A stretch of 64,000 nucleotides of DNA, taken from an uncultured Desulfospira sp. GTDB lineage: Bacteria > Desulfobacterota > Desulfobacteria > Desulfobacterales > Desulfobacteraceae. The first letter of the stretch is position 1; every line of letters begins with the position of its first letter. The stretch spans positions 704,001 to 768,000 of the forward strand of contig OY760175.1 of NCBI GenBank assembly GCA_963663165.1, written 5' to 3'. Positions 3,735-28,092 of this stretch are shown piece after piece. The notes below the pieces were generated by a model, which saw only the letters and a list, made by a program, of their open reading frames with translations, ran no database searches and was not told where the DNA came from. A program made the position numbers and the translations under genes.

Positions 3735-3736
3735 CC

Positions 3737-7047: not shown

Positions 7048-7228
7048 TTGTTCAGGTGCATTTCACGCATGCTTTAACCATAAAGCATAGGGAATCCGGT
7101 TAAATTCCGGAACGGGCCCGCCGCTGTAGTTGGGGACGAACCCTGCAAACTGCCACTGTTGAAACGAATTTCGGCGGGAAGGCGCAGTCAGTAGAATGAT
7201 CCAATAGTCAGAAGACCTGCCTTAACAA
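7048..7228 (+). promoter_or_regulatory. Cobalamin riboswitch 1 (upstream of the corrinoid salvage operon)
   Basis: AGGTGC, ATAGGGAATCCGGTTAAATTCCGG, GCCCGCCGCTGT, GCCACTG...GGGAAGGC and B12-box AGTCAGAAGACCTGCC; P1 TTGTTCAGG/CCTTAACAA. Confidence 0.95.
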
Positions 7229-7285
7229 ATTTGGCCTTTCCTTGTGGTAAAGGAGGGTCAATACATTTTCGGATATAAATTAGGG

Positions 7286-7329
7286 ATGCTCCGAATCAGT
7301 AACACGCTGGTTCGGGGCATTTTATTTTT
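7286..7329 (+). terminator. Attenuator terminator of riboswitch 1
   Basis: ATGCTCCGAATCAG/CTGGTTCGGGGCAT hairpin plus T-rich tail, between the aptamer and the first start codon. Confidence 0.75.
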
Positions 7330-7367
7330 AAGCTGTTAGCCTTTAGCTAACCGATCAAGGACGGCAT

Positions 7368-9437: not shown

Positions 9438-10308
9438 AATTTTTTCACGCCTGATCTGGGTATCCGCTTTCATGATTTTGGGGCTTTCCGGACAGGGCAG
9501 GGCAGACCAGGCCATACCCCGGCGGGTGATCTCACTTTCTCCCATTATCACGGAAACCATCTACCTTGTGGGGGCCCAAGACCGGCTCATTGCCAACACC
9601 ACCTATTGCAATTCCCCGCCTGAGGCCCAATTAAAAGACAAAATCGGTACCGTGACCCAGATGAACATCGAAAAGGTTATCCGGCTGAACCCGGACCTGG
9701 TCATTGCCAGTGCCCTGACCCAGGAAAAACAGCTCAAAGTTTTGGAAAGTCGGTTCATTCCCATCTTCAGGGCAGAAAACCCCAAAACCTTTGAACAGAT
9801 GTGTGACATGACCCTGGCCATGGGAAAACGGCTTGGAAAGGCCGAACAGGCCCATGCCATTATCGAAAAAACCCGAAAGAATGCCGCCTGCATCAACGCC
9901 CTGACCCAACATCTTGAAAAACCCAGGGTATTCATGCAGATCGGTTTAAAGCCCTTATACTCAGCCAACAAAGATATGTTCATAAACGAATATATCCGGT
10001 ATACTGGCGGCAGAAACATTGCTGAAAACGAGGCGTCCGGGATTTACAGCCGGGAAAAGGTGTTGGCCCAGGACCCTGAAATTATTCTGATTGCCACCAT
10101 GGGAAGCTCAAAAAAAGCCGGCGAAATGGAAAAGCAGCGGTGGATGGCTTTTAAAAGCATTTCCGCGATAAAATCCGGCCGGATCTATATTCTGGACCCT
10201 GAATTGATATGCAGTCCCACGCCGGTTACTTTTGTTAAGGGGATCATAGAAATTCTGCCGTTGATTCACCCGGATGCAGACCTTTCTGCCGGAGGGTGTA
10301 CCCCATAA
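9430..10308 (+). CDS. btuF: Corrinoid ABC transporter substrate-binding protein
   Basis: Signal peptide, RVISLSPIITETIYLVGA, EKVIRLNPDLVI; under the B12 riboswitch. Confidence 0.82.
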   Translation: MNKIFSRLIWVSAFMILGLSGQGRADQAIPRRVISLSPIITETIYLVGAQDRLIANTTYCNSPPEAQLKDKIGTVTQMNIEKVIRLNPDLVIASALTQEKQLKVLESRFIPIFRAENPKTFEQMCDMTLAMGKRLGKAEQAHAIIEKTRKNAACINALTQHLEKPRVFMQIGLKPLYSANKDMFINEYIRYTGGRNIAENEASGIYSREKVLAQDPEIILIATMGSSKKAGEMEKQRWMAFKSISAIKSGRIYILDPELICSPTPVTFVKGIIEILPLIHPDADLSAGGCTP

Positions 10309-11315
10309 TGAGCCCAAGGATCAGACAATGGGCATTCATTACGGCCGGCCTTTTTATTTTTATGCTGGTCTCCGGCCTGATCGCCCTTTGCACGGGCAGT
10401 GCCGGCATCGACATCGGCCGCATTCCCGACATCCTGCTCCACGGGAAAGGATCTGCCGATTACAGCATTTTAATGAATATCCGCCTTCCCCGGATCATTT
10501 TGGGAATGGCCGTTGGCGGTTCTTTGAGCCTGGCCGGGGCCCTGCTGCAGGGCATGTTCAGAAATCCCCTGGTGGAGCCTTATACCTTGGGGATTTCCGG
10601 CGGGGCCTCCTTAGGGGTCTGTGTCAATATCCTGTTTAAATTTTATGCGGTAATCGGGATTGCCGCCTACCCCCTGTCCGGATTTTTAGGGGCCAGCCTG
10701 GTCATCTTTCTGGTCTACAGTTTGAACCGGCAAAACCGGAATATCCGGTCCAACCGGATGCTCTTAACCGGGGTCATGATCTCCTATGTGGCCTCATCCC
10801 TTGTCATGCTGCTCATGGCCCTGTCCCACAGCGACGAACTTCAAAACATCGTGCTGTGGATCATGGGCTCACTGGATGAACCTAACCTGACGTTGATCCG
10901 GATTGCGGCCATTGGGTCCGTTGCCGGCCTTCTGATCTCTTATCTGTTCTGCATGGACCTGAACGCCCTTTTGCTCGGGGATGAAGAAGCCGCAGGCCTT
11001 GGCATCAACACCGTCAAAACCAAAAAAATCCTGTTTGTCACGGCCTCTTTCTTAACGGGCTTAAGTGTGGCCGTGGCCGGCATTATTATGTTCGTGGGGC
11101 TGATTGTCCCTCATTTTATCCGGCTGATCACCGGGCCGGATCACCGGATTTTATTGATCGGCTCATTTCTGGCCGGGGCCGCCTTTTTAACCTTATGTGA
11201 TGTGGTGGCCCGGACCATTATAGCCCCCCTAGAACTGCCCGTGGGCGTGATTACCGGCATTATCGGCGGGATTATCTTTATCTGGGCCCTTTCCAGGAAA
11301 AAGGTGATCCTGTGA
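10308..11315 (+). CDS. btuC: Corrinoid ABC transporter permease (FecCD family)
   Basis: RLPRII, QGMFRNPLVEPYTLGISGGA, FVGLIVPH, ELPVGVIT. Confidence 0.85.
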   Translation: MSPRIRQWAFITAGLFIFMLVSGLIALCTGSAGIDIGRIPDILLHGKGSADYSILMNIRLPRIILGMAVGGSLSLAGALLQGMFRNPLVEPYTLGISGGASLGVCVNILFKFYAVIGIAAYPLSGFLGASLVIFLVYSLNRQNRNIRSNRMLLTGVMISYVASSLVMLLMALSHSDELQNIVLWIMGSLDEPNLTLIRIAAIGSVAGLLISYLFCMDLNALLLGDEEAAGLGINTVKTKKILFVTASFLTGLSVAVAGIIMFVGLIVPHFIRLITGPDHRILLIGSFLAGAAFLTLCDVVARTIIAPLELPVGVITGIIGGIIFIWALSRKKVIL

Positions 11316-12115
11316 TTCCGGTACTTGAAATAAGACATCTGAACCTTTCCTATAAAGATACCCCCATTCTCAAGGATATCTGCCTCAAAGTTCAGCAGGG
11401 GGAATTTCTGGCTGTGGTGGGGCCGAACGGGTGCGGGAAAACCACCCTGGTGAAAGCCATCCTAAGGTCCATTACGCCAGGGGCAGGGCAGATCCGGTTT
11501 AAGGGAAACGATATCACGGCCCTGTCCGGCAAAGCCCTGGCAAAGGGCATGGCATCGGTTCTCCAGACCATTGATCCGGCGGCCATGACCGTCAAGGAAT
11601 ACGTGCTGCTGGGACGGCTCCCCTATTTTTCGCCCTACCAGTTTTTTGAAACCCGGAAAGACATGGACATTGCCTTAAAATACATGGAACTGACCGGCAC
11701 CGCCCATCTGTGTGATGCCCGGATCAATGAAATCAGCGGGGGAGAACGGCAACTGGCCGCCATTGCCAGGGCCCTGACCCAGGAGCCCTCCCTGATCATC
11801 ATGGACGAACCCACGTCTAATCTGGACATCACCCACCAGGTCCGGGTCCTGGATTTGATGACCGACCTTAAAGAGGATTTGGGCGTGACCATTTTCATGG
11901 TCCTCCATGACCTGAACCTGGCTGGGGAATATGCGGACCGGCTGGTACTTTTAGACAAGAACGGCGGCTGTGTTTACGGCTCAGGCCGTCCCCTGGATGT
12001 GCTGACCGAAGAGGCCATTGAGTCGGTTTACCAGACCAAGGTCACCGTGGCCCCCAACCCGGTCACCCGAAACCCCTTTGTATTTATCGTAAAAAAAGGA
12101 AACACCCATGACTGA
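11312..12115 (+). CDS. btuD: Corrinoid ABC transporter ATPase
   Basis: Walker A GPNGCGKT, ISGGERQ, MDEPTSNLD, LHDLNLA. Confidence 0.85.
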   Translation: MIPVLEIRHLNLSYKDTPILKDICLKVQQGEFLAVVGPNGCGKTTLVKAILRSITPGAGQIRFKGNDITALSGKALAKGMASVLQTIDPAAMTVKEYVLLGRLPYFSPYQFFETRKDMDIALKYMELTGTAHLCDARINEISGGERQLAAIARALTQEPSLIIMDEPTSNLDITHQVRVLDLMTDLKEDLGVTIFMVLHDLNLAGEYADRLVLLDKNGGCVYGSGRPLDVLTEEAIESVYQTKVTVAPNPVTRNPFVFIVKKGNTHD

Positions 12116-12899
12116 CAAACGAGAAGATATCCCTGTGGTCCTGACGGCATTCGGTACAACGGCCAAAGCCTTTGCCACCTACGAAAAAATGGACCGGGTA
12201 TTCAAAGAGACCCTGCCGGACACTCAGATTCACTGGGCTTATTCATCCAGGGTGGTCAAACGGGCCATGCAAAAAAACCATCAACTGGACCTCAAAGATC
12301 CATTAGAAACCCTTCAAATTCTGGCCGATCAGGGCCACACCTGGGCGGTCATGCAGTCCCTGCACCTGGTCTGCGGCCATGAATTTCACCGCCTGATCGT
12401 GGCCCCGCACCATGCCGGTATCACCGGAATCCGGTTTGCCGCCGGCCTGCCGCTGCTTACGGCCCACGATGATTTTGAAAAAACGGCCCAGGCCCTTTCC
12501 CCTATCGTGCCCCAGGACCCTGACCAGGCCCTGGTGCTGGTGGGCCACGGCACGGATCATCCGTCCTGGACCAGCTATCCCGCCTTGGAGACGTTTATGC
12601 GGCGAATATACGGTCCCCGGGTCTTTGTGGGAACCGTGGAATGGTACCCGGGACTTGATCATACCCTTGAGCGGATTATGGCAGCCGGATTCAAGAAGGT
12701 CACCCTGGTCCCCTTTCTTCTAGTGGCCGGGGTCCATTTTAAGGAAGACCTTACCAGGGAAGAGGATTCCTGGCAGAAAACCCTGGAGCGCAACGGGATT
12801 GAGGTTACCCTGGTGGATCAGGGGGTAGGCCAGCTGGACGGCATTACCCGGATTTTCTGTGACCATATTGCAGAGGCTGTAGACGTCATTCCCTTGTAA
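12108..12899 (+). CDS. cbiK: Anaerobic sirohydrochlorin cobaltochelatase (cytoplasmic type)
   Basis: VLTAFGT, GHGTDHP, PFLLVAGVHFKED; no signal peptide. Confidence 0.88.
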   Translation: MTDKREDIPVVLTAFGTTAKAFATYEKMDRVFKETLPDTQIHWAYSSRVVKRAMQKNHQLDLKDPLETLQILADQGHTWAVMQSLHLVCGHEFHRLIVAPHHAGITGIRFAAGLPLLTAHDDFEKTAQALSPIVPQDPDQALVLVGHGTDHPSWTSYPALETFMRRIYGPRVFVGTVEWYPGLDHTLERIMAAGFKKVTLVPFLLVAGVHFKEDLTREEDSWQKTLERNGIEVTLVDQGVGQLDGITRIFCDHIAEAVDVIPL

Positions 12900-12999: not shown

Positions 13000-13788
13000 T
13001 CAATAAGCCGTACGGCTTGTTTTTCTAAACCGGGAGGGGGTAATCCCTTCGTGTTTCCTAAAGCATCGGGCAAAATAAGAGGCATCATTAAACCCCACGG
13101 AAAAACAGGCCTGGGAAATGTTTACGTCCGGAATTTTTAACAGCCGCTTGGCCGCTTCCACCCGTTTGATGTTCAGATACTCCTTAAAGGTCTGCCCTGT
13201 GGCCTGCCTGAAAAGGCGGCTGAAATGGAACCGGCTCAGGCCTGACAGCTCTGCGGCATCGTCAAGGCGAATGTTTTCCATATAATGGGTATCAATAAAG
13301 GCTATGCATTTTTTCAGACGGCGGTCATCGGTGTTAAAGCTCATTGGACCTGAAAAATTGATCAGGGAACGGGTGGAAAATCGCCTTAAATGTTCGATGA
13401 ATAGGGACTGATAATACCGTTTAAGCCGGCTGTTATCCAAAAGGATTTTTCCAAATTTTTCCCTTGATATGGTCAGGCACTCCACCGGTCCTGAGGAAAT
13501 GGCGTCATAAAACGACACGCCTCGTCCAAAAAAAGCCTCTACCCCGAAAAATTCCCCTTTTTCCAAGCTTCCCCTTAAAGTGGTACGGCTGTTTTCTGCG
13601 GGGGCATAAACGTCGATAACGCCGTCAAGGATGTATCCTAAGCAGTCCGGTGTTTCATTTCTTTGAGCAATCATGGTGTAGGGCTCAATCAGGGTGAAAT
13701 CAAATTCGGTTTTAATCAGTTGTGTTAATTCAAAATCGCTAATGCTGTTAAACAGCAGCTCTCCTTTAGTTTGTTCTAAAATTTTCAT
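13000..13788 (-). CDS. AraC-family regulator with an N-terminal cNMP-binding-like domain (paralogue 1)
   Basis: GYILDGVIDV...GEFFG cNMP-fold pattern; C-terminal double HTH (LSRFHFSRLF...VGFNDASYFARCFRK). Start codon uncertain. Confidence 0.88.
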   Translation of the reverse strand: MKILEQTKGELLFNSISDFELTQLIKTEFDFTLIEPYTMIAQRNETPDCLGYILDGVIDVYAPAENSRTTLRGSLEKGEFFGVEAFFGRGVSFYDAISSGPVECLTISREKFGKILLDNSRLKRYYQSLFIEHLRRFSTRSLINFSGPMSFNTDDRRLKKCIAFIDTHYMENIRLDDAAELSGLSRFHFSRLFRQATGQTFKEYLNIKRVEAAKRLLKIPDVNISQACFSVGFNDASYFARCFRKHEGITPSRFRKTSRTAY

Positions 13789-13803
13789 GACAGAAAAGGC
13801 CCC

Positions 13804-13846
13804 AAAAAAACAAAAAAATCCGAACAAGCAGGCTTGTCCGGATTTC
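13804..13846 (-). terminator. Attenuator terminator of riboswitch 2
   Basis: Minus-strand AATCCGGACAAG/CTTGTTCGGATT hairpin followed by TTTTTGTTTTTTT. Confidence 0.72.
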
Positions 13847-13899
13847 CGTTTTTAATCCTTTATTTGGTTAACGCGCCCTTACCCTGGGTACGCCAATTC

Positions 13900-14064
13900 A
13901 TACAGGCTGGTCTTCTGGCTCTCGGATCATCTTACTGGCTGAGCCTTCCCGCCTTCTTACGGCAGTGGCATAGATACAGCGGTCATCCCCGATTACAGCG
14001 GCGGGTCCGTCATTGAGTTTCACAATGTTCCCATTATCCCGGCACGGGCCGGGTACCTGTAATC
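13900..14064 (-). promoter_or_regulatory. Cobalamin riboswitch 2 (upstream of AraC paralogue 1)
   Basis: Minus strand: ACAGGT, AATGGGAACATTGTGAAACTCAATG, ACCCGCCGCTGTAA, GCCACTG...GGGAAGGC, AGCCAGAAGACCAGCCTG. Confidence 0.93.
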
Positions 14065-14077
14065 CTTATTTGTCTGG

Positions 14078-14106
14078 ACCATAAAAACTTAATGGCTAAA
14101 TGTCAA
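14078..14106 (-). promoter_or_regulatory. Sigma70 promoter for riboswitch 2
   Basis: TTGACA-N17-TATGGT on the minus strand immediately 5' of the aptamer. Confidence 0.7.
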
Positions 14107-14141
14107 TAAATGATTTCATTCTTGATCCTTTTTCTAATCGT

Positions 14142-15587
14142 TTATTCTAATTTGCCTAAAATAACTTTTACGGGCGAACATGGCGGGCCGAAATCAGATT
14201 TGACATACCATGGGCCGGTAGGGGTCAAATTGGAATCAGCCAGCTTGATTTTTCCCTGTGCATTTACCCGGATATTAATTCTGAATTTATCCGATTCTGC
14301 AGGCTCTGTATCACCACCGTTGATCCGGATGCCGAAATAACCGCCGACCCTGAAAAAAACCCCGTAAAACCGGTGTTCGCCAATACTGCCGTAATACCGT
14401 GGCCTTGCTATGGGACCGCCGACATTGCCGGTAGTATAGATAGAAACCATATCTTCAACATGACCGCCAAGGTAAAGCTCACCCCGGGCGCACCCGTTGA
14501 AGGCCAGATCCTCTTCAGCGGCAATGACAAAGTTTTTGGCATGGGTGCTTGCTGAGCCGACTCTCGGGGGGCCGCTGATGCCAAGCCTGCCGTTATGGGG
14601 GTTCGCCCCTTCAAAATAATATACGGCACCTGAATGGTTCCCGTCATGGGGGCAGAAGATATAATTGTCAGCCCCGAGATAATAGTAACTATAATAGAAG
14701 TTGCCGTCATCATCATACCGGCCGCCTTCCATTGAGGACTCGGTGTAGCTTGGAAAGCTGGCATCGGTCATGGGAATTATCCGGTTTTGACCGCCGGCCT
14801 CGTCTTTAAGTTCTGCCATGATATCATCTAAGTCCTGGGAGGGATATAATTCTTCCTCTCCTGAAGAACAGGCATCTTCTACAGGGCAATGGCTGATGTC
14901 GCCGGCTGCGGTTGCCCGGGTGCCGCCGGTTATTGCAGTGCTGCCTGTACTTGAAAATTCAATCTCCGTATTTGAGTGAATGATGCCGGTATTGTTAAAA
15001 TTAATATAACATGAATACAAATTGTCGATGATAATTCCGCCGGTAACCGGATCATCATCATAGGAAAATAAACCGGCATTTGAAGCAACACTCACTGCAC
15101 TGGCCGATACGGTTGCGCTTTCCTGTGCTAAAATACCTGAGAAAAAGGCCGGCACCTCAGTTTTTAAAGAAACCATTACGGCGTTGTTGTAAACATACTG
15201 ATCATTTGACGGGTCGGATAAGGCTTCATTGTAGACGGTATCCGTGTCTGAATCAGCTATAAAGTCCTTATAACCGGTAAAATCATCATACGTATCGTCA
15301 AGATCATAAAATCCGATCCTGACCGTCAGTTTTTCCGAATCATAGGGGATCTGGTTTTCAGAAGCCACCAGCCGTGCCACATCGTCATAGGAGGAATCAC
15401 AAATATTCATGGCTGCCGCCAGGGCGGCAGCCTCCACGCTGTTTTGATACTTATTTTTTCTCATCATCAGATACCCCCCGTCTGCTACAAGGGCCAGAAT
15501 CCCGAGAAAAACCGTTAAAGAAACGGCCGTGATAATGACAATATTACCTTGTTGGTTATTGATCTTATGGTCTGCACGGATGATCAT
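14142..15587 (-). CDS. TadG-like pilus-associated protein with a large C-terminal region I cannot assign
   Basis: N-terminal Tad signature: G|NIVIITAVSLTVFLGILALVADGG...QNSVEAAALAAA. Confidence 0.82.
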   Translation of the reverse strand: MIIRADHKINNQQGNIVIITAVSLTVFLGILALVADGGYLMMRKNKYQNSVEAAALAAAMNICDSSYDDVARLVASENQIPYDSEKLTVRIGFYDLDDTYDDFTGYKDFIADSDTDTVYNEALSDPSNDQYVYNNAVMVSLKTEVPAFFSGILAQESATVSASAVSVASNAGLFSYDDDPVTGGIIIDNLYSCYINFNNTGIIHSNTEIEFSSTGSTAITGGTRATAAGDISHCPVEDACSSGEEELYPSQDLDDIMAELKDEAGGQNRIIPMTDASFPSYTESSMEGGRYDDDGNFYYSYYYLGADNYIFCPHDGNHSGAVYYFEGANPHNGRLGISGPPRVGSASTHAKNFVIAAEEDLAFNGCARGELYLGGHVEDMVSIYTTGNVGGPIARPRYYGSIGEHRFYGVFFRVGGYFGIRINGGDTEPAESDKFRINIRVNAQGKIKLADSNLTPTGPWYVKSDFGPPCSPVKVILGKLE

Positions 15588-15632
15588 ATTTTTTTAGGCA
15601 TTTTCAAAAGACGAGAACCTATGCGGAAACTT

Positions 15633-16286
15633 TCAATTAACATCTTCAGGTTTAAAGGTCTTCCCGCCGGTTACCCGGCCCCCAACAACAAGGGAGACCC
15701 GGACTTTCGGGGCGTCCGGGAACTGGGTAAAATATTCAGATGCAATTTTTTGCATGGTCTGTGCCACTCCCTCGGGATGATATCCTTTGGCTGAGGTGGT
15801 AAACGCCACATAGCCAAAAAGTTTTTGATTGGCCTCAATGCCGGCCTCGGGTAGAAATTTGGTTTCCACCCGGACCCGGGTGGCGTCGGTGTGGCTTAGT
15901 ACCCGGTCTTGAAAATGGGCAATGGTGTCTTCAATTTGTATTTTTAGATCCTCTGTTTCATTTAAAGCGTTCGTTTTTAAGTTATTTTTTGTGACTTCCT
16001 TTATGTCTGTTATGGCCGTATTTTGGCTGATCGGTGGTTTTTTTTCTGTAACGGATGCCTCTGGTTTGGTTTCTTTTTTCATAGATTCGGTGTGCGGTGG
16101 GATTTGATCATTTTCCATGGCGGTTAAAACCTTATCATTTCGGTTTTCCGGCAAATGGAAGCTGGGTGAGCTGAACCATAAGGTACTCAGAATCGCCAAA
16201 CCTGCTATTACTACAAGAATTAAACTAAAAAGCCTTGGTTTGTTTTTAAAAATTTTTACCTCGTTCAAAAGGCTTATGTTTTTCAT
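15633..16286 (-). CDS. Hypothetical membrane-anchored protein
   Basis: SD-like AGGTGG before ATG 16286; one N-terminal hydrophobic helix, a charged linker and a globular C-terminus. Confidence 0.65.
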   Translation of the reverse strand: MKNISLLNEVKIFKNKPRLFSLILVVIAGLAILSTLWFSSPSFHLPENRNDKVLTAMENDQIPPHTESMKKETKPEASVTEKKPPISQNTAITDIKEVTKNNLKTNALNETEDLKIQIEDTIAHFQDRVLSHTDATRVRVETKFLPEAGIEANQKLFGYVAFTTSAKGYHPEGVAQTMQKIASEYFTQFPDAPKVRVSLVVGGRVTGGKTFKPEDVN

Positions 16287-16460
16287 AATTGTGTCCACCT
16301 TCAAATATTTCGCACGGCGACATTCTATGTAATGCAATAATGCAATAAAAAGCTCATGATAGTAACTGCCTATAGTTGCAGGCAGGACCGTCACACCAAA
16401 AAATTCTGGAAACCGTTTTTCACATAAAAAAAAGACTTTGTCTTGAAAAAGATGCCCCAA

Positions 16461-16494
16461 AGGAAAAGCTGCCGGGTCTCTATGACCCGGCAGC
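16461..16494 (-). terminator. Intrinsic terminator after the dockerin-cohesin gene pair
   Basis: GCTGCCGGGTC/GACCCGGCAGC perfect 11-bp stem followed by TTTTCCT on the minus strand. Confidence 0.78.
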
Positions 16495-16520
16495 CAATAT
16501 CAATCTGTAAACAATCTTGT

Positions 16521-17144
16521 TTATTTATTATACCTGCGCAGACCGCAAATCCCAATAAGGCCACTAAACATCAGCCAGATGCCTGCAGGAACAGGTACAT
16601 TTGAATAGTCAGGCTCACCGCTGTTAACTGTCAACCCATCAGTCCAACCCCCGTCGAGGTCAAAGTAAGAGGTATCGTCATGGCCCCATTCCACCCAGAT
16701 ATCGTCTCCATCCCAAGTCCCGCCATTAAAAGTAAAACTAACGGAGAACAACAAATAATCCGTGTCTGCATCCATGGTAAATCCTTCGAAGCTCCAGTCG
16801 TAACAACCGGCATGGAAAAGGCTGGCCCCACCAATATCAGTGGAACCATTAAGTGTATACCCTTCAGATTCGTCAGTGCCATAGCTGATCCCATAAGCCA
16901 TGCTGTCCTCAACATAAGTTAATTCCACATCATCGAAACCGAGGTTAAGGCCCCAACCGTATAATGAGTCTTCTGATTCCGTATGAAGATAAACAGATAT
17001 CGTCACCGTATCTCCAATCTCCGCAGTAAGAAGCCCTGCTTCATCAAGTACCAAATAATGAGAGTAAGCTGGTGATGACACCAATATGAATAGCCCCATA
17101 ATTAATCCAATTAAAAGGTACTTTGGGTTAGATATTTTTCTCAT
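16521..17144 (-). CDS. Secreted cohesin-like protein with a VPxP (PEP-CTERM/VPLPA-CTERM) sorting tail
   Basis: Signal peptide; GDTVTISVYL...GWGLNLGFDDVELTYV...LFSVSFTF cohesin-like strand pattern; C-terminal VPVPAGIWLMFSGLIGICGLRR. Confidence 0.75.
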   Translation of the reverse strand: MRKISNPKYLLIGLIMGLFILVSSPAYSHYLVLDEAGLLTAEIGDTVTISVYLHTESEDSLYGWGLNLGFDDVELTYVEDSMAYGISYGTDESEGYTLNGSTDIGGASLFHAGCYDWSFEGFTMDADTDYLLFSVSFTFNGGTWDGDDIWVEWGHDDTSYFDLDGGWTDGLTVNSGEPDYSNVPVPAGIWLMFSGLIGICGLRRYNK

Positions 17145-17181
17145 TTCATTCTCCTTTATGTAAATTCTGTTATTAAATGGT

Positions 17182-18699
17182 TTAATAATATGGTCCCTGA
17201 GTACGCATTCTCAACCTGAAAGCCGAAAGGTCCCTTGAGGTAACCGTACCATCACTGTTCATATCACAATCGGGATTGTAACCCTCATCGCCTTCACTTT
17301 GGCGGTATGATGTTCGAAATGTTGAAAGGTCCCTGGAAGTAACACTGCCATCATTGTTAAAATCCGCATCCGCCGCATTGCCATACATATCATGATCAGT
17401 ATCAGTCTGATCGGCGTTGGCTGTCTCAGGTGCATTATCAATGGCGTCAGGGACACCGTCTGCATCGTTGTCCTCGTCACGGGTTATGGCTGTCACTATA
17501 TCCGGGCCGCCGGTGCTCCAGCCATAATCCTGGTCCACAAAAAGCCGGTTGGCCGTGGGGGTTGACTCGGTGGGGTCGGTATAGCCGTTATCGGTGGCGT
17601 CATCAATAAAAGATTCACCATCGTATGCCAGGGCCTTTTGCCAGTTCCAGCCTGAGGTCGGATTGGTTTTGGCAAGATAGATGAGATCCTCCTGGGAATA
17701 GCCCTCGTCTGGCAGGTCGTTTCCATCGTTGGCAATCATTACAACAAAGCCGGTATCAATGTCATTTTCAACGTCAAATCCACCGTTAATGGTAATGTAA
17801 ACATTGCCTTCCGGATCGCATTCAAAGTCATTGGGGGCGGTGTAATAGGTGGTGCCATCGTCATCAACAAAGGTCGGCAAGGCAATGGTTTCGTCGGCCA
17901 GTGCCGGTGTCAGCACCGAGCCGTTAGAAATTGCCGCACTGATGGTATCGGCTTTGTACATGTAGACGTATTGCTGATCGGCCGGACCGGAACTGGTGTA
18001 ACTGCCGCACCACAGATTTCCAGCGTTGTCAAATGCCATGCCGTTAGAGTATCCGCCGATTTCCACCACCTTCTGCCATGCGCCGTTGGCACGGATAAAA
18101 ATAGCGTGGGGGTCGCTCCAGTAGTTGGCTTCCTTACCAACGAAAAAGGCGGTTCCGGACTGGTCACCGGCAGTGGGCCAGTCTACTTCCCAGGCCCCGG
18201 GCAGCACAAATTCTTCGGTGGCCGTCCCAAAGGTCATGGTATCCAGGTTCGCCGATACGGTATAATATGATCCGCTGTCAGATGTATCTTTGGTATCGGA
18301 AAGCCATATGGTGTCACCGGCCGGGTTGAGCTTTGCTGTACCCGAGTAAACCCCTAATCCCGGGGCAACCTCTGCCACCTCCTGGACCAGGTTGCCGAGT
18401 TGGTCGTAAAGCATGGCTTTGACCGTTCCGGTATAGTCGCTCCAGTTCATGGTATCCTCAGCCTTGAGAAAACACCTGGTTTTGGCTGCTGCAGTACCTT
18501 CAGCCACCTGGGCATAGACCACATCCATGCCCCCGGAGTAATTTCGGGCGGTGTCTTCCATTGTTGCATCCTGGACTGCATAACCATCCTCACCCGCCAT
18601 GCGTTCCGAGGTTGCCCAGCAGGGCACTGTAATAAAGCTCATGATAAAAAGTAATGCTGAAACGGATAGCATCAGTTTTATTAAGTTTGTTTTGTTCAT
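17182..18699 (-). CDS. Secreted acidic beta-propeller-like protein with thrombospondin type 3 repeats and a C-terminal dockerin
   Basis: Signal peptide; blade-like motifs NGMAFDNAGNLW and NDFECDPEGNVYI; DADGVPDAIDNAP...DQTDTDHDMYGNAAD; duplicated Ca-loop-helix DFNNDGSVTSRDL / DMNSDGTVTSRDL. SD AAGGAG before ATG 18699. Confidence 0.8.
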   Translation of the reverse strand: MNKTNLIKLMLSVSALLFIMSFITVPCWATSERMAGEDGYAVQDATMEDTARNYSGGMDVVYAQVAEGTAAAKTRCFLKAEDTMNWSDYTGTVKAMLYDQLGNLVQEVAEVAPGLGVYSGTAKLNPAGDTIWLSDTKDTSDSGSYYTVSANLDTMTFGTATEEFVLPGAWEVDWPTAGDQSGTAFFVGKEANYWSDPHAIFIRANGAWQKVVEIGGYSNGMAFDNAGNLWCGSYTSSGPADQQYVYMYKADTISAAISNGSVLTPALADETIALPTFVDDDGTTYYTAPNDFECDPEGNVYITINGGFDVENDIDTGFVVMIANDGNDLPDEGYSQEDLIYLAKTNPTSGWNWQKALAYDGESFIDDATDNGYTDPTESTPTANRLFVDQDYGWSTGGPDIVTAITRDEDNDADGVPDAIDNAPETANADQTDTDHDMYGNAADADFNNDGSVTSRDLSTFRTSYRQSEGDEGYNPDCDMNSDGTVTSRDLSAFRLRMRTQGPYY

Positions 18700-18909
18700 C
18701 TTATTAAATCTCCTTATTGAATTATTTTGATTTATCAGCCAGATATTCCTGATGATCACCTCCTTATTTTCCTAATTATTTCTCAGCAGGTTCGTTGCTG
18801 GTTATCCGTCGGATTGAAAATGTCTTAAAAAGCGGTGGTAATTTAGAAAGCACCCCCAACCCGGTCTTTTCCCATTAGACGTCATATATAACGAAGGGAA
18901 AAGAAATAC

Positions 18910-18946
18910 TCGTAATATATTGTCGGAATTTGGTAAATTTTTGTCC
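18910..18946 (-). promoter_or_regulatory. Candidate AraC-type tandem operator upstream of the dockerin gene
   Basis: Minus-strand GACAAAAATTTAC and GACAATATATTAC repeated exactly 21 bp apart, followed about 19 nt later by TATATA. Confidence 0.45.
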
Positions 18947-18996
18947 ATTGGACGGCCGTTTGGATAAGCGGTATTTGTTGTTTCTGAATTAACAGG

Positions 18997-19842
18997 TCAC
19001 TGTGACACCCGGCGGCCCTTTCGGTCACTGATTTTTACCTGATTCCGGTAATGGGACGGCAGCATGCCTTCGGATTTATGGAATACCTTTGAAAAATAGG
19101 ACAGATCATTGAATCCCACATGAAAACAGATATCGGTCACGTTCAAATCCGGATTGTTCATCAGGGCCTTGGCCGCTTCCATCCGCCTGGCGTTCAGGTA
19201 GTTTGAAAAGGAAATTCCCATGGTGGATTTAAAGATTCTGGAAAAATACCATTTGCTCATGTGGCACTGTCTGGCCAGATCCTCTATGCCAATGGGTTTT
19301 CTGTAATGTTTATCAATAAATGCCAGGGCGATTTCCAAACTGCGGACCGGATCATTGTCCTGGCCCGGGTCCTGCCCATTGTCCGGAAAACGAATGGCTG
19401 CCGTTAAATGCCGGCCGGTTGAGTCTGACGACGCTTTCCAGAGCCATTGTACCGAAGACAGGGCGGTTTTATAGAAAAAGTTCTGGATAAAGGGATACCG
19501 GTGAATCATGGTTTTAAAATCGTTGATATGCTGAAAGAAAAATACCCCGGGCCGGTTGGCCTTCAGGCAGGTTATGGCAGACCCGCTGATAAAATAATCT
19601 GTGGCACCAAAAAATTCGGCCGCGCCAATGGTTTTAATGGATTCATCGCCATTGGCCGTTTTGATCATGTGATCGGCTGCCCCTGAACTGAGCAGCCCCA
19701 CTGTTTTAATATCCCGGCCCTGATCCTGAAGAATCTGGCCATGTTTGAAGCTGCGGCGGTAAAAGGTTGAACTGATGTTTTCAAGGCTGTGGTTATCTAG
19801 AGCATCAAAACCCGGAATCTGTTTTAAAAGATTTCGTATCAT
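18997..19842 (-). CDS. AraC-family regulator with an N-terminal cNMP-binding-like domain (paralogue 2)
   Basis: LLKQIPGFDALD...GQILQDQG...AEFFG; C-terminal MSKWYFSRIF...VGFNDLSYFSKVF; SD GAGGAG before ATG 19842. Confidence 0.88.
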   Translation of the reverse strand: MIRNLLKQIPGFDALDNHSLENISSTFYRRSFKHGQILQDQGRDIKTVGLLSSGAADHMIKTANGDESIKTIGAAEFFGATDYFISGSAITCLKANRPGVFFFQHINDFKTMIHRYPFIQNFFYKTALSSVQWLWKASSDSTGRHLTAAIRFPDNGQDPGQDNDPVRSLEIALAFIDKHYRKPIGIEDLARQCHMSKWYFSRIFKSTMGISFSNYLNARRMEAAKALMNNPDLNVTDICFHVGFNDLSYFSKVFHKSEGMLPSHYRNQVKISDRKGRRVSQ

Positions 19843-19955
19843 TGTTTTTCTCCTCAAAAGGCCCAATCCGAAAGCGATTGCCTCCTTAGGTTGTTCCTTT
19901 CTCTTCAAAATAGATTGAAGTCCGGCCCGAATCCTCGAGGCCGCCCTTAACTTCT

Positions 19956-20163
19956 AAACCGGGCCAGGTCTTCTGACTTTCAGATCAAGCAAATGGCCGC
20001 GTCTTCCCACCTTTAAGGGACACCTTGTGCCTGCCAGCCTTGATGCAGGCAAAGGCCCCTTTAGGGCAGTGACATGTTGCGGTTTTCTTCTCTGATTACA
20101 GCGGCGGGCCCGTTTCCGATTTTCACGGAATTCCCATTTAACCCATGGCAGGGGGCCCGGTTT
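19956..20163 (-). promoter_or_regulatory. Cobalamin riboswitch 3 (upstream of AraC paralogue 2)
   Basis: Minus strand: AATGGGAATTCCGTGAAAATCGGAA, GGCCCGCCGCTGTAA, GTCACTG...GGGAAGAC, AGTCAGAAGACCTGGCCC; P1 AAACCGGGC/GCCCGGTTT. Confidence 0.93.
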
Positions 20164-20273
20164 TTATTATTTACAAGTTGTTAAAAACTCCTTGGTTCAT
20201 GGCTTGTTTTCCAACAAAAAAATTTGTATTTGTGTTCATCTGCCCACGTGGGCATTTTTTAAGCCTCAGGCCA

Positions 20274-20573
20274 TTAATCATCGTTGTCCTCAGAAGCGTC
20301 ATCATCGCTGTCGCTGCTGTCCTCATCGGAAATGTCATCCAGGTAATTCTCATATATGGCCCGGGCTGCCGTACCGGAAAGCTCTAAAGGCGGCGTGTCA
20401 GCGGGCAGGCCTTCGGGATGAACCGCCTGGGTTTTGATCATGGCCTCAAAGGAGCGGCCGTGATCCGGGGAAAGGGCCTCAGTGGCGCACCCGCCCAACA
20501 GGGCCGTTGAGCCTGTAATGAAAAAAATCAGGGCAATGGTGATCAGGTCAGCGTAAAAGAATCTTTTTTTCAT
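20274..20573 (-). CDS. Small Tad-associated lipoprotein with an acidic tail
   Basis: Lipobox LGGC; DHGRSF...QAVHP motif seen in small tad-locus lipoproteins; overlaps the stop of the TPR gene. Confidence 0.65.
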   Translation of the reverse strand: MKKRFFYADLITIALIFFITGSTALLGGCATEALSPDHGRSFEAMIKTQAVHPEGLPADTPPLELSGTAARAIYENYLDDISDEDSSDSDDDASEDNDD

Positions 20574-21526
20574 GGCTGGTTCTCCAGGGCAGGGCAGGGG
20601 GTTGGATTTGGCACTTCCCGGCTGTCAGTACCGGCCGGATCTTTTATTTTATAGGCGATGGCCGCGGCCTTTTTCCGGTTTTCCATGGCCAGGGCAAAAT
20701 CAGGGTCGGCCTTGACGGCTTTGTCATACATGGAAAGGGCCTGATCAATATGGTTGTTGATGTGATACACATAGCCCTGATTGTTATAGGCCACAGCCTC
20801 GCTGTTGGTGGCTTTAAATGCGGCCAGGGCCTTTTGCTCATTTCCGGCCATGCCGTAGGCAATGCCCAGATTATTGATGGCACGGGCATATCGGGGATCA
20901 ATGGCAATGCTTTTCTTAAAATACCCGATGGCTTCTTCAGGCTGCCCGTTCATGAGGCAGGACACGCCAAAGTTGTTGTAAAAGGCGGCCACGCCCGGAT
21001 CAATCTCAATGGCTCTGGCATAACAGACCCTGGCCTCATCATGGCGGCCCATGGCATCATAGGTCACCCCTAACCCCCCGTGGGCATAGGAAAACCCGGG
21101 GTCTGTTTTCAGGGCCGATTCAAACTGCCGGACCGCCTTGGGGTATTCTTTTTTGCCCCGGTAGCAGACCCCTTTTAAGTAGCAGATTTCCGGGTTATGG
21201 GGATCGGTTTTTTCGGCTTCGTTTAACTGTCCTATGGCCACTTCATAATACTTGTCATGGGTCAGCTGCCGGGCCAGCCCCAGGTAATTGGGAGCCTGGT
21301 TTTTTTCTTTTTTATAGGTCATTTCCTGGAGGGCGGCCTTATCTTCAATGGCCTGTTTTTTCAGTTCATCGCCAATGGTGTCCCGGCCCCCTGAAAAGTA
21401 AGAGGTGCAGGCGGACAACACCAGACAGGCGAGGACCAGGATAAGTTTACCCGGATTTTTTACCAGTGACGTGAATCTGATCCCTGGCCGGGTTGGGTTT
21501 TTTATGTTCATTTGACGTTCCAACAA
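20570..21526 (-). CDS. tadD: TPR lipoprotein, TadD-like pilotin
   Basis: Lipobox LSAC, multiple TPR repeats, position after tadC. Confidence 0.72.
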   Translation of the reverse strand: MLERQMNIKNPTRPGIRFTSLVKNPGKLILVLACLVLSACTSYFSGGRDTIGDELKKQAIEDKAALQEMTYKKEKNQAPNYLGLARQLTHDKYYEVAIGQLNEAEKTDPHNPEICYLKGVCYRGKKEYPKAVRQFESALKTDPGFSYAHGGLGVTYDAMGRHDEARVCYARAIEIDPGVAAFYNNFGVSCLMNGQPEEAIGYFKKSIAIDPRYARAINNLGIAYGMAGNEQKALAAFKATNSEAVAYNNQGYVYHINNHIDQALSMYDKAVKADPDFALAMENRKKAAAIAYKIKDPAGTDSREVPNPTPCPALENQP

Positions 21527-21540
21527 TGTTGTATCCTTTT

Positions 21541-21633
21541 TTATAAGAAAGTATCCCTAACGTCCTGAGAAGACTTTCAATATTTGTTGTGGGCGGTTCT
21601 TGGTTGGATAACCAAGACGGCCCGTGGCCGTTA
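21541..21633. repeat. REP-like two-hairpin repeat, copy 1
   Basis: GAAAG..CTTTC hairpin followed by GTGGGCGGTTCTTGGTTGGATAACCAAGACGGCCC; also at 38937 and 39152. Confidence 0.85.
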
Positions 21634-22545
21634 GTTGATCAATGCGTCCATTAACCGGAGGACCGCAGGACCTAAAATAACGATCATCAGGGACGGCAGT
21701 ACCAGGAACACCAGGGGCAAGGTCAGCTTCACCGCAATTTTAGCCCCTTTTTCCTCGGCAATCTGATGGCGCTCGGTCCGCATGGATTCCGAGTGAATCC
21801 TTAAGGCCCCGGCAATGTCCGTTCCAAACTTTAAAGACTGAAGCACCACCTCCACAAAGGCGTCCAGCCCAGGAGAGTTATTTCTTCGTTTGATATTGCC
21901 CAGGGCCGTGGTCCGGGCCACGCCGCCCCTTGTCTCATAAAAATACTGGGCAAATTCACGGCTTAAAATCGGGGCCACCTGTCTGAGTTCTTTGCTCACC
22001 CTGAGCAGGGCCACCTCAAAGCCTAAACCGGCCTCAATGCACAGCACCATCAGATCCAGGGTATCGGGCAGTTCTCTGAAAATATTTTTTTTCCGTTTTT
22101 TGACCTTTTTTTTCAATACCACCGGCAGCAGGCTGTAAGATACGCTGATGGCAGCAAAGGCCATGGTAATGGAGACCAGGGTGATATTTTCCATCAGGGC
22201 AACGCATAAAAGGGCAAGGGCCAGAACCGTGCCAAAAAGAATCATCCGGATGCCGCAGAACAATTCTAAGGCATGGGCATGCCGGTACCCGGCGCAGGCC
22301 AGGTCCTTTTTTAAGCGGATCTTGTCTTCCCCCTTGGGCAAGGTCTTTTCCCCAATAATCTTAACCCACCGACCCATCCGGCTCATGGACCGGTTCACTT
22401 TTGAGTCAGGGGATTTGCGCTTAAGCCGTTGCCGTATGACCCGGGTCTTTCGGGAATCCTTAACCAGAACCCCAAAGCACAGGCAGACAATGACTAGGGC
22501 CGCAACATTGATGAGAAAGCTGATATCCGTCATAAGCTTAAACAT
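21631..22545 (-). CDS. tadC: Tad inner-membrane platform protein (T2SS F family)
   Basis: ELPDTLDLMVLCIEAGLG, AEEKGAKIAVKLTLPL. Confidence 0.92.
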   Translation of the reverse strand: MFKLMTDISFLINVAALVIVCLCFGVLVKDSRKTRVIRQRLKRKSPDSKVNRSMSRMGRWVKIIGEKTLPKGEDKIRLKKDLACAGYRHAHALELFCGIRMILFGTVLALALLCVALMENITLVSITMAFAAISVSYSLLPVVLKKKVKKRKKNIFRELPDTLDLMVLCIEAGLGFEVALLRVSKELRQVAPILSREFAQYFYETRGGVARTTALGNIKRRNNSPGLDAFVEVVLQSLKFGTDIAGALRIHSESMRTERHQIAEEKGAKIAVKLTLPLVFLVLPSLMIVILGPAVLRLMDALIN

Positions 22546-23494
22546 CCACCTTTGTTAACAGCCGCATCACTAAAAATCCCGTTACATTAAGGACCAGGGC
22601 CGTGATCAGTAAATGCTGCCCCTTGGGGTCATGAAGCAAAATCGACATATATCCCGGGTTGACCAGGTAAATGGCGCCGGAAAAGCCAAAGGGCGCCAAT
22701 CCCAAAAGAAACATGGACAGCCTGCCTTCTGCTGTTATGGCCCGGATCTGCCGGCCTAACTTGAACCGGGAACGCAGGGTGTGGCTTAAGGATTCAAGGA
22801 TCTGGGTTAAATTGCCGCCGGTTTCCTTCTGGATAATAAAAGAGGTGCATAAAAATTTAATTTCCGGAATTTTAGGAAACCGTTTTTCAAAATTTCTTAA
22901 GGCCTGGGCAAAGGCAAGCCCCATGGACAGCTCATCATAAACCAGGCGGATCTCCGTGCTGATGGGCGGCGCCATATTGGTTGAAACCCCGTAAAGGGCC
23001 CGGTCCAGGGACTGCCCGGATTTTAAGGCCCGGACAATAAAATCCATGGTATTGGGCAGCTGGCTGACCATGAGCTGGTTTCGTTTTCTTTTTTTGTGGG
23101 CCACCACCAGAACGGGCAGGGCAAAGCCTGCCACGGCCATGATAACAAACATCAAAAAAGAGCGGGTCATCAGAAAGCCCGCAAGGGAGAAGCCCGCGCC
23201 AAGACCCGATGAAATCAGTAAAAAGGCGTCCAAAGACAGGGCAAGGCCGCTTTGGGCCAACATATCCCCAAGCGTTGATACATCCATTACATGAGAAATC
23301 AGGCGCTCCAGCATGCCGATTTTTCGCTGCCGCTTAAGTTCCAGGCGGCGGATCTGTTTTAAGCTTGGGGCTGTGGCGGCCCGCCGGAGCATGGCCTGCT
23401 TTTTGACGGCCTTTTGATCCAGATAAATATAGTAGCCCCCCATGCACAACAGCCAGACACAGACAAATACCAGAAATGGAATCACATAGGCCAT
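22538..23494 (-). CDS. tadB: Tad inner-membrane platform protein
   Basis: QLPNTMDFIVRALKSGQSL, QKETGGNLTQIL, AITAEGRLS. Confidence 0.92.
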   Translation of the reverse strand: MAYVIPFLVFVCVWLLCMGGYYIYLDQKAVKKQAMLRRAATAPSLKQIRRLELKRQRKIGMLERLISHVMDVSTLGDMLAQSGLALSLDAFLLISSGLGAGFSLAGFLMTRSFLMFVIMAVAGFALPVLVVAHKKRKRNQLMVSQLPNTMDFIVRALKSGQSLDRALYGVSTNMAPPISTEIRLVYDELSMGLAFAQALRNFEKRFPKIPEIKFLCTSFIIQKETGGNLTQILESLSHTLRSRFKLGRQIRAITAEGRLSMFLLGLAPFGFSGAIYLVNPGYMSILLHDPKGQHLLITALVLNVTGFLVMRLLTKVDV

Positions 23495-23497
23495 GGG

Positions 23498-24850
23498 TCA
23501 CCGTCCTGCCGGAATGCAAAAGTTAAACATCTCTTTATCCAGGCGATGGCCGGAACGCCTCAAATGGTCCACAAACCGGGACGGGGTGCCCGTGCTTTTA
23601 AAGCAGCCGTAAATGGTCCCGTCCTCATGAATCCCTTCCTGCTCAAAAACAAAAATATCCTGGAGCTTGATCTGGTTGTTTTCCACGCCCATAACTTCGG
23701 ACAGAGAGATAAATTTACGGGTCCCGTCGGGCAGGCGGGTTAAGTGGACAATCAGATGGATGGCGCTGGCCATGAGTGAGCGCAGGGCATTTTCTGAAAT
23801 GGCCAGGGTGCCCATGCCCACCATGACCTCAAGGCGTGACAGGGCATCTCTGGCCGAATTGGCATGGATGGTGGAAATGGATCCGGGATGGCCTGTGTTC
23901 ATGGCCTGGAGCATGTCCATGGCCTCGGCCCCCCTGACCTCGCCCACAATGATCCGGTCCGGCCGCATCCTCAAGGAGTTGATGACCAGATCCCTTAAAG
24001 AGACCTCGCCTCTGCCCTCTATATTGGCCGGCCGTGATTCAAGCCTGGTCACCTGGGGCTGCTGAAGCTGTAGCTCGGCACTGTCTTCAATGGTGATGAT
24101 TCGTTCGGACTTGGGGATAAAGGTGGACATGGCATTTAAAAAAGTGGTTTTCCCGCTGCCGGTGCCGCCGGAGATCAGGATATTGAGCTTGGTCTGAATG
24201 GCCTTGGAAATAAATTCCACGATCTGGGGAACAATACTGGTGCCGGACAGCAAATCTTTCAAGGTGATGGGCGTGTAACCGAATTTTCGAATGGACAGCT
24301 GGGGCCCGTCAATGGCCAGGGGCGGAATCACCGCATTTACCCTGGAACCGTCGGGAAGCCTGGCATCCACCATGGGGCTTGATTCATCAATCCGCCGGCC
24401 CACGGTGGAGACAATCCGGTCAATAATCTGCATTAGGTGTTCATTGTCCCGGAATTTGATGGCCGTGGGATAAAGGATGCCTTTTTTTTCCACCACCACC
24501 TGGTTGTGGGTGTTCACCAGGATATCCTGGATGGTGTCGTCTTTCAGCAGCGGTTCAATGGGGCCCAACCCTAAAATCTCATCCACCACGTCGGAGACCA
24601 GGGTGTCCAGTTCTTTTCGGTTCAACGGAATGTTTTCAGCGGCGGACACATCAATGGCGACCTCCCTGATCCACTCCCGTAAGGTGTTTTCAGGAATGTC
24701 CTCAATGGTGGAAAAATCAATCACATCAATGAGCCGGGAATGGACCCGGGTCTTGATGGTATGATAGGCTGTAAAATCCAGATTGACCGACGCGGTGAGC
24801 GCCTGGCTCCCGGATGATTGGACCATTCCAAATTTATCAGCTAATTTCAT
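23498..24850 (-). CDS. tadA: Tad pilus motor ATPase CpaF/TadA
   Basis: [52 protein letters not shown]. Confidence 0.96.
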
Positions 24851-24871
24851 TTTAAAAAAATCCCTAATTTT

Positions 24872-24948
24872 TTAGCATTTAGCTATTAGCCGTTAGCGGT
24901 TAGCCGGCAGAACTTTCCCTTATAGGCTAACAGCTAAAAGCTAATAGC
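24872..24948. repeat. Palindromic heptamer repeat, TTAGCnn family (inside the tad operon)
   Basis: TTAGCAT TTAGCTA TTAGCCG TTAGCGG TTAGCCG ... GGCTAA CAGCTAA AAGCTAA TAGCT. Confidence 0.8.
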
Positions 24949-24952
24949 TCTT

Positions 24953-26116: not shown

Positions 26117-26132
26117 GTGGTTATGCCTCCCC

Positions 26133-27647: not shown

Positions 27648-27672
27648 TATTTATCCTTAAACTGATTGCTGC

Positions 27673-28092
27673 TCAGCGGGCATTATAAAGGGAGTTTGAG
27701 GCAGAGGAATTCAGGCCCCTGATCACATCGACCTCCAGTGAGGGCCAGTCCGGCTGCACCACCCGGATTTCCAGAAAGTCTTTGGTTCCGTCTTCGTACC
27801 AGACAATGCACATGGTCGATCCCATTTTCCGGCCGTCAATGACCATTTCATAGGGAGAAATCACCTTGACTTCGGCTATTTCCGTATCATTGATGGAGAT
27901 TATTTTAACCGGGCTTGGCCTTTGGGGGCGAAGCATCTTGATAAAATAAGGACGGGAGTGTTTTTCAGGCACATAAATGGTGGTTGCGGCCAGGGACCGG
28001 CTTTGTCCGGCCCAGGCCGTTGCGCTTATGGTGAAAAGAACAAGAATACCGGCTAACAACAGGTACCCCATGCTCAGCCTGTGGTGTTTCAT
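27673..28092 (-). CDS. Secreted stand-alone pilus-secretin N-terminal-like domain protein
   Basis: Signal peptide; IAEVKVISPYEMVIDGRKMGSTMCIVWYEDG parallels the CpaC N-domain TADVRALSQNKILINATSVGSTNLILWYEDG. Confidence 0.75.
   Translation of the reverse strand: MKHHRLSMGYLLLAGILVLFTISATAWAGQSRSLAATTIYVPEKHSRPYFIKMLRPQRPSPVKIISINDTEIAEVKVISPYEMVIDGRKMGSTMCIVWYEDGTKDFLEIRVVQPDWPSLEVDVIRGLNSSASNSLYNAR

Follow-up and report, generated by a model that had tools for sequence, protein, structure and literature searches.

Proteins with one cohesin and a C-terminal envelope anchor for a dockerin-tagged secreted protein include OlpA/OlpC of Clostridium thermocellum (PDB 3ul4, 4dh2) and ScaE of Ruminococcus flavefaciens (2zf9), whose anchors are SLH and a sortase signal, respectively. 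A comparable arrangement was found in an uncultured Desulfospira sp. (GenBank assembly GCA_963663165.1) by analysing 64,000 nucleotides of contig OY760175.1 (positions 704,001 to 768,000; hereafter the window). Two adjacent genes in the window encode a predicted secreted dockerin protein (gene 1) and a predicted single-cohesin protein with a VPLPA/PEP-CTERM-type sorting tail (gene 2), and the latter, presumably sorted by an exosortase, probably tethers the former outside the cell. Unlike OlpA/OlpC and ScaE, gene 2 has a diderm host and carries a VPLPA/PEP-CTERM tail together with the exosortase XrtD. Moreover, unlike those of cellulosome producers, the cargos are phosphatases, proteases and propellers rather than cellulases. 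No multi-cohesin scaffoldin was found in the genome, and no glycoside hydrolase family occurs among the Pfam matches of its 19 dockerin open reading frames (ORFs). A cellulosome was ruled out, given that the 11 cohesin-like ORFs found are single-domain proteins of 173-243 aa and that these Pfam matches include no dockerin-bearing glycoside hydrolase.

Cohesins and dockerins outside cellulolysis have been described in Archaeoglobus fulgidus (2xdh), anaerobic methanotrophic (ANME) archaea and syntrophic sulfate reducers. Adjacent cohesin and dockerin genes were noted in syntrophic sulfate reducers (PMC10553843), and ANME dockerins often occur on ABC-type nutrient-binding proteins (PMC9012536; cited papers are represented here and below by excerpts). 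In contrast to the present locus, these excerpts name neither a PEP-CTERM/exosortase anchor on the cohesin nor B12 control. Genome-inferred cohesin-dockerin systems have also been proposed in other diderms, namely the 'planctosome' and the cellulosome-like complexes of Cloacimonadota (PMC6461901, PMC8542988), which the excerpts describe as large scaffolds that have many domains or several cohesins and are anchored by other means, whereas small single-cohesin PEP-CTERM proteins are present here. No PEP-CTERM anchor is named in the excerpts on non-cellulosomal genes of ANME archaea, syntrophic sulfate reducers, Planctomycetes or Cloacimonadota, and no paper joining a cohesin with PEP-CTERM was found, although older surveys and supplements (S10 Table of PMC10553843, S4 Data of PMC9012536) might list such proteins. 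A multi-class repertoire within one genome and a B12-linked cassette are what this locus adds.

Two further systems provide a basis for comparison. The PEP-CTERM/VPLPA-CTERM system (XrtD, TIGR04152; PepA; ZepA) resembles gene 2 in its signal peptide, which is a predicted one in gene 2, and in the pattern of a VPxP-transmembrane-basic tail, and about 75-90 such genes accompany XrtD in this genome; here, however, the protein to be sorted is predicted to serve as the socket onto which another protein docks. In the surface B12 relay BtuG/BtuH/BtuJ of Bacteroides, surface proteins, DUF4465/BtuJ among them, are encoded in clusters under riboswitch control (PMC13398666, PMC13616437), and DUF4465 genes likewise lie behind B12 riboswitches in loci orthologous to the present one. 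The Bacteroides proteins are lipoproteins beside BtuB, whereas PEP-CTERM or dockerin anchoring would be used here.

Architecture of the gene pair

Gene 1 (17182-18699, 505 aa when started at the ATG at 18699) and gene 2 (16521-17144, 207 aa) are separated by 37 nt, each with a ribosome-binding site, and both lie on the minus strand exactly where a first-pass annotation of the window had placed them. The pair is closed by an intrinsic-terminator-like hairpin on the same strand, with 12 pairs and a modest U tract. It has a z value of -4.0, was equalled in stability by 0 of 200 shuffles, and is the strongest terminator-like site within 13000-21000; the earlier annotation had recognized it but had put it at 16461-16494, whereas the stem was placed at 16467-16495.

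The gene 1 product combines a signal peptide, a predicted beta-propeller (aa ~30-408, 17476-18612), thrombospondin type 3 (TSP3)-like Ca-binding repeats (aa ~408-437, 17389-17478) and a dockerin, as would be expected of a secreted dockerin-tagged cargo. The TSP3-like repeats were recognized by Pfam and a profile search, the Pfam TSP_3 match just ahead of the dockerin being sub-threshold. The dockerin itself had been called before and is well supported: Dockerin_1 (PF00404) scored 29.7 bits against a cut-off of 22.9, a profile of 24 cargo homologues matched solved dockerins in the PDB (2y3n, E 1e-5), and the structure model shows two helices in this part. Each of its two repeats consists of a Ca loop and a helix (aa 446-465, 17305-17364; aa 479-498, 17206-17265). 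They share TSRD at positions 9-12, and agree in the S and R of positions 10/11 and in the R of position 17. Thus, the recognition residues are shared as annotated, although the description of the repeats as near-identical was overstated, because only 13 of 20 residues are identical.

The gene 2 product begins with a hydrophobic N-terminus, judged to be a signal peptide by hydropathy only, which is followed by the predicted cohesin domain (aa ~29-182, 16599-17060). Pfam Cohesin (PF00963) stayed below its cut-off here (E 0.054, 14.1 against 24.1 bits), and a PDB sequence search with the gene 2 alignment returned only non-significant cohesin matches (E 0.21-0.42). On the other hand, an iterated profile seeded with Pfam-scoring relatives reached gene 2 with E 1e-5 before inclusion, and the AlphaFold model (pLDDT 83) resembles the cohesin jelly-roll beta-sandwich. 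In VIA-align, entries that contain a cohesin filled the top 18 rows (best Z 11.4, rmsd 2.6, 125 residues aligned), the A. fulgidus cohesin 2xdh reached Z 10.4, and the OlpA/OlpC and ScaE entries were among the matches at 6-17% identity. The first non-cohesin row had Z 9.0, the lead over other Ig-like sandwiches being about 2 Z units. Foldseek also gave cohesins in its top rows (E ~2e-4, TM ~0.5). Gene 2 is therefore a member of the cohesins by predicted fold, not by Pfam score, which upholds the fold part of the earlier cohesin call. In the top ESM Atlas cluster (0.97), 94% of the members carry PEP-CTERM and 61% carry Cohesin, so this architecture is already present in automatic annotations. 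Among 1.84 billion representatives searched, 32 relatives of gene 2 were found, and the sorting tail is retained in 21 of 25 aligned homologues.

With regard to the interface, the cohesin domain has 32 Asp/Glu and no Lys/Arg, and the dockerin helices carry arginines, both proteins being acidic overall. Complex prediction for the cohesin (gene 2 alignment rows 3-156) and the dockerin (aa 432-505) gave 0.21 and 0.15 against a mark of 0.32 and was counted neither way. By eye, the gene 2 domain was also seen in other contexts (related loci bear L-numbers): twice before a dockerin-like end in an adaptor-like protein (P0057), once with a dockerin (L033:6995-8869), and fused to PKD-like repeats (P0068) or to a PDZ-like region (P0060).

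Sorting tail and exosortase

The C-terminal tail of gene 2 (aa 183-207, 16524-16598) reads VPVPAGIWLMFSGLIGICGLRRYNK and follows the VPVP-hydrophobic-RR pattern that had been annotated. It scored 24.0 bits for VPLPA-CTERM, just below the cut-off of 25.35 (E 3e-5), and 12.7 against 16 for PEP-CTERM (TIGR02595). Among the profiles named by the first-pass annotation, Dockerin_1 thus exceeded its cut-off, and Cohesin, VPLPA-CTERM and PEP-CTERM remained below theirs. The possibility that gene 2 encodes the flocculation protein PepA was ruled out by the equivalog NF033554 (21.5 against 80 bits).

As had been stated, the 64-kb window contains no exosortase gene. The annotation had made its reading depend on an exosortase elsewhere in the genome, where three matches were found, one of which is XrtD (TIGR04152, 601 bits against a cut-off of 400), the exosortase specific for VPLPA-CTERM; the tail of gene 2 fits this enzyme. 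A first pattern picked out 75 PEP-type genes in the genome, a broader one, which takes in a few likely false positives, 90, and all 4 Pfam cohesin matches of the genome sit in PEP-tailed ORFs. Three orphan cohesin-PEP genes were also observed (G000:C1 5634930, 6527242 and 1993987, G000 being this genome), the last of which reads on beyond its VPVP tail into an extension that closes with another tail-like segment.

Genomic pairing and class matching

A search for other dockerin proteins, suggested by the first-pass annotation, yielded the 19 dockerin ORFs of the genome. The 11 cohesin-like ORFs (10 clear, 1 borderline) are all PEP-tailed; about ten siblings of gene 2, as well as the B12 riboswitch/AraC context, had been missed. 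Cohesin-like PEP genes were located within 2 kb of a same-strand dockerin gene in 8 of 11 cases, compared with 9 of 79 for other PEP genes (Fisher p 4e-5), and the difference persisted without the borderline cohesin (7/10 vs 10/80, p 2e-4).

A similar distribution was found in 154 related loci, which were fetched mainly via the TSP3 and dockerin tail and include records of Desulfobacterales, Gammaproteobacteria, Betaproteobacteria (Aquabacterium), Omnitrophota and Marinimicrobia. PEP genes were divided by distance into 68 dockerin-adjacent and 42 other genes, of which 66 and 39 were retained after 2 and 3 proteins longer than 400 aa were dropped. Pfam Cohesin matches with E<=0.05 were present in 12 of the 66 (5 over the cut-off) and in none of the 39. 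An iterated, tail-trimmed profile seeded with these 12 proteins and 3 from the own genome detected 55 of 66 adjacent genes (43/54 among the non-seeds) versus 4 of 39 others. In the 110 outside loci for which 1.5 kb or more of downstream sequence was available, a cohesin-like gene lies within 700 bp in 51 (40 PEP-tailed by pattern). Kinship or duplication among many of the loci means that the counts are not independent.

Dockerins and neighbouring cohesins also match by class. For the 7 pairs of this genome, dockerin similarity follows cohesin similarity (Mantel r 0.94, exact p 2e-4), with only 4 classes represented. Three of these pairs share both classes despite unrelated cargo bodies (similarity 0.01-0.02; metallophosphoesterase or choice-of-anchor I domains), and in two of these three the cohesin gene lies upstream, far from the dockerin, which a simple copied fragment would not explain. 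For 46 outside pairs, r was 0.86, and still 0.49 when only the 690 comparisons between unrelated cargos were taken (a value reached by 0 of 2000 permutations), shared ancestry being included in both values. The genome appears to run several plug/socket classes in parallel, including a phosphatase-cargo class, a second class and the TSP3 class of genes 1 and 2. Pairing and class matching support a functional partnership, here and in relatives.

Several further arrangements were noted among these genes. In L012 (G000:C1 6103508-6115050), three TSP3-type dockerin proteins (two of them subtilases) lie amid PEP-CTERM genes, no cohesin-like gene being detected nearby; a cohesin encoded elsewhere might serve them as well. 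Five large proteins (875-1557 aa; G000:C1 1394819, 3553375, 3663943, 4528069, 4549296) have Ig-like domains and two dockerins each, with no cohesin-PEP neighbour. A dockerin gene is followed by a tail-less and then by a PEP-tailed cohesin-like gene in L080, L083, L130, L133, L139 and L144. In L008 (G000:C1 4703242-4706741), the cargo beside the cohesin at 4706862 looks split into a leucine-rich repeat ORF and a choice-of-anchor-I/dockerin ORF.

B12 context and possible roles of the cargo

Four of the eight cobalamin riboswitches of the genome lie in the window, in an island of B12 and Tad genes that also holds the pair. One aptamer (RF00174; 19946-20174, minus strand; 98.4 bits against a gathering threshold of 31.5) precedes a cyclic nucleotide (cNMP)-binding/AraC regulator (18997-19908, minus strand) located directly upstream of gene 1, and no terminator-like site was found on the minus strand between this regulator and gene 1. 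A direct repeat with a 21-bp period (18910-18946, minus strand) lies upstream of gene 1 and is a candidate AraC-family operator; a 21-bp spacing is typical of AraC operators. A paralogous regulator (13000-13827, 32% identical) has its own riboswitch (both within 13000-14075, minus strand), and homologues of these regulators adjoin B12 riboswitches in L015, L196 and L199. The remaining riboswitches head a plus-strand corrinoid operon (7037-12899 together with its riboswitch) and a complete-looking Tad/Flp cluster with two CpaB copies (20274-33092, minus strand). The operon encodes a fusion of a BtuF-like periplasmic binding protein with CbiZ (adenosylcobinamide amidohydrolase; 7368-9437), a BtuF/C/D-like ABC transporter and CbiK. 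Elsewhere, the genome has a TonB-dependent receptor behind a B12 riboswitch.

The 21-bp-period motif also occurs in the sister genome G001 (score 34.8, shuffled-genome maximum 17.6), at a site not used in training the motif, where it lies ahead of another dockerin cargo with a cohesin-PEP gene behind it; the corresponding site of G001 holds other dockerin cargos, a cohesin-PEP and a DUF4465-PEP gene. Among 21 genomes, this cargo-type repeat was confined to these two, and it was not seen in more distant orthologous loci. A related tandem repeat (21/22 bp, AGCAA-A-rich) lies ahead of six other genes of this genome (near G000:C1 3160406, 2830350, 4581907, 3626299, 2864287 and 2568028), namely five PEP-CTERM genes and a 295-aa gene (scores 28.7-47.6 against a control of 11.9, two of the six being training sites). 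One of them encodes a protein with the DUF4465 TPAYF motif. The six genes may form a regulon controlled by one of the regulators in the island. No sigma-54 motif was found in the upstream regions tested, and sigma-70-like sites were about as frequent as expected by chance (14 vs 12.4).

In L014, L015 and L016, a cobalamin riboswitch heads a DUF4465-PEP gene, a second PEP gene, the cargo and the cohesin; DUF4465 proteins have been reported to bind B12 across clades (PMC13398666). Cobalamin riboswitches are also present in L024, L045, L196 and L199, but were absent from L198 and from the short or partial flanks of L017, L018, L019, L033 and L089. In cohesin-paired loci of other groups, 0 of 13 had any Rfam match, which limits the B12 link to the gene 1 cargo class. 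Within this class, B12 regulation of the pair is favoured to a modest degree. In such a scheme, the riboswitch would control an AraC-type activator acting on the 21-bp repeat, so that gene 1 may be repressed by B12 and switched on when B12 is scarce.

The gene 1 model (pLDDT 87) provides information on the propeller, for which 23 full-length homologues with 32-67% identity were found. Its best match is the AA12 PQQ domain (Z 25.1, rmsd 3.4, 298 aligned), followed by PknD NHL, SGL lactonases and paraoxonase, all of the six-bladed type, and ESM Atlas assigned SGL/NHL (0.91). A common propeller fold by itself shows no function. In the loci with usable flank, a cohesin-PEP gene lies near a full-length cargo gene in 6 of 9 others (adjacent in L014, L015, L016, L017 and L089, at 1.7 kb in L196), after L195, a duplicate of L014, and L090, which is too short, were left out. 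When 400 genomes of the order were sampled, the N-terminal domain of the cargo was found in 5.

The broadest proposal for these data is that diderms with exosortases run a 'switchboard' of orthogonal cohesin-dockerin classes, one per nutrient regulon. In this genome, one class would display phosphatases, and the gene 1 class, behind the B12 riboswitch and AraC regulator and beside a B12-switched Tad pilus, would display a corrinoid-capturing propeller as the PEP-CTERM counterpart of the BtuG/H/J relay. We regard this proposal as speculative and rather unlikely as a whole. In the preferred explanation of the pair, too, corrinoid capture or salvage by the propeller is the most speculative step, and direct corrinoid binding is itself doubtful. 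The propeller resembles lactonase, PQQ and NHL folds and no named B12 binder, and the seven-bladed BtuG was not in its top 50 fold matches, whose top rows were other propellers. Full-length cargo orthologues in L193, L194 and L197 lack both a cohesin neighbour and a B12 riboswitch, the L197 gene having an internal stop. In L193 and L194, the cargo dockerin looks degenerate, and neighbouring proteins have a C-terminal signal of the GGCFI type. A BtuH-like identity was considered for neighbouring PEP proteins and for two dockerin cargos of this genome, but was dropped because they gave no PDB match as single sequences or with a 6-row profile.

Alternatively, the tether may be real and the cargo a biofilm/adhesion component or Ca-dependent hydrolase of a Tad-pilus island, unconnected with B12 handling, with the riboswitch only timing its expression. 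This explanation concerns the cargo only and overlaps with the preferred tether; its chances fall slightly short of even. Besides the paraoxonase, lactonase and PQQ matches and the orthologues without a B12 switch, it is favoured by Tad genes flanking the module here and in L016, L018, L024, L089, L196, L197, L198 and L199, and by cyclic di-GMP (c-di-GMP) riboswitches in L014, L016, L024, L045 and L198. The recurrence of these two features in the same loci makes a biofilm role about as likely as B12 handling. The alternative is countered by the co-occurring DUF4465-PEP genes behind B12 riboswitches in L014, L015 and L016 and by the corrinoid ABC/CbiZ/CbiK operon of the window.

Probable tethering and alternative fates of the pair

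For the tether itself, the first-pass interpretation is supported by the predicted cohesin fold, XrtD, genomic pairing and class matching. Both products would be exported by Sec, and XrtD may then cut the gene 2 tail and lead to attachment on the cell surface or in an exopolysaccharide coat, where the cohesin would catch the Ca-loaded dockerin of the propeller protein. Because the two dockerin repeats share their recognition residues, binding might occur in two orientations, as described for symmetric type I dockerins (PMC12484212).

Several observations, in addition to the sub-threshold profile scores of gene 2 and its fold lead of about 2 Z units, weigh against tethering. In this genome, 7 of 19 dockerin ORFs have a cohesin-PEP gene within 2 kb and 12 do not, and 57 of the 110 outside loci have no cohesin within 2.5 kb. 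Loci whose dockerin gene has a cohesin neighbour and loci lacking one (55 vs 48) did not differ in dockerin symmetry (p 0.47). Cargo-bearing genomes G287 and G333 yielded no gene-2-type cohesin with the gene 2 alignment profile, and G123 carries the cassette without an exosortase match in its 580-contig assembly. Moreover, the p-values overstate the case, as kin loci are not independent and the own pairs form so few classes. Finally, the location of exosortase substrates is presented as unsettled in the excerpts consulted (PMC12188702, PMC10957091, PMC9850573).

In a second alternative, the pair binds but the tail is merely cut off, the complex being released or periplasmic and the cohesin acting as an export or retention partner. 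Exosortase substrates have been described as attached or released, ScyE/ScyF as periplasmic (PMC12188702), and the PEP-CTERM zinc scavenger ZepA as an exoprotein proposed to diffuse (PMC10957091). However, it is not obvious what a free single cohesin would add to a cargo equipped with its own signal peptide, the tail is kept in all 11 cohesin-like proteins of the genome, and cargo families related to gene 1 also occur fused directly to a PEP tail. The last two features suggest that a protein may reach one destination either through a tail of its own or through a dockerin. This alternative is considered improbable. In the least likely explanation, the repeats would be EF-hand-like elements that do no more than bind Ca, gene 2 would encode a generic PEP-CTERM adhesin with a beta-sandwich, and genes for exported proteins would simply cluster. 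It would accommodate the low Pfam cohesin score, the dockerin genes and cargo orthologues without a cohesin neighbour, and the non-cohesin PEP genes that also flank dockerin genes, but is opposed by the far more frequent position of cohesin-like PEP genes beside dockerin genes, the class agreement across unrelated cargo and the run of cohesin entries heading the fold matches of gene 2.

If tethering is true, a concrete job could be assigned to one class of PEP-CTERM proteins, the majority of which lack any, and to non-cellulosomal dockerins, whose role has been described as an open question (PMC5244752, PMC9012536). Since about 11 sockets and 19 plugs of corresponding classes occur in one genome, their specificity could be examined directly in a binding matrix, and the set might be a source of new orthogonal cohesin-dockerin pairs with which to display proteins. 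The link to B12 may also point to an undescribed surface route of corrinoid scavenging in sulfate reducers.

Other genes near the module

Just left of the B12 island, two tRNA genes are followed by an integrase gene (3660-5749). Beyond the terminator of the pair, an ORF without a name or Pfam match (15633-16460, minus strand) has homologues that flank the module in L016, L018 and L196, and this type of ORF is possibly a third component of the module. Small genes that resemble it and share a V-x-L/V-W-VGG ending recur in L033, L045, L089, L198 and L199.

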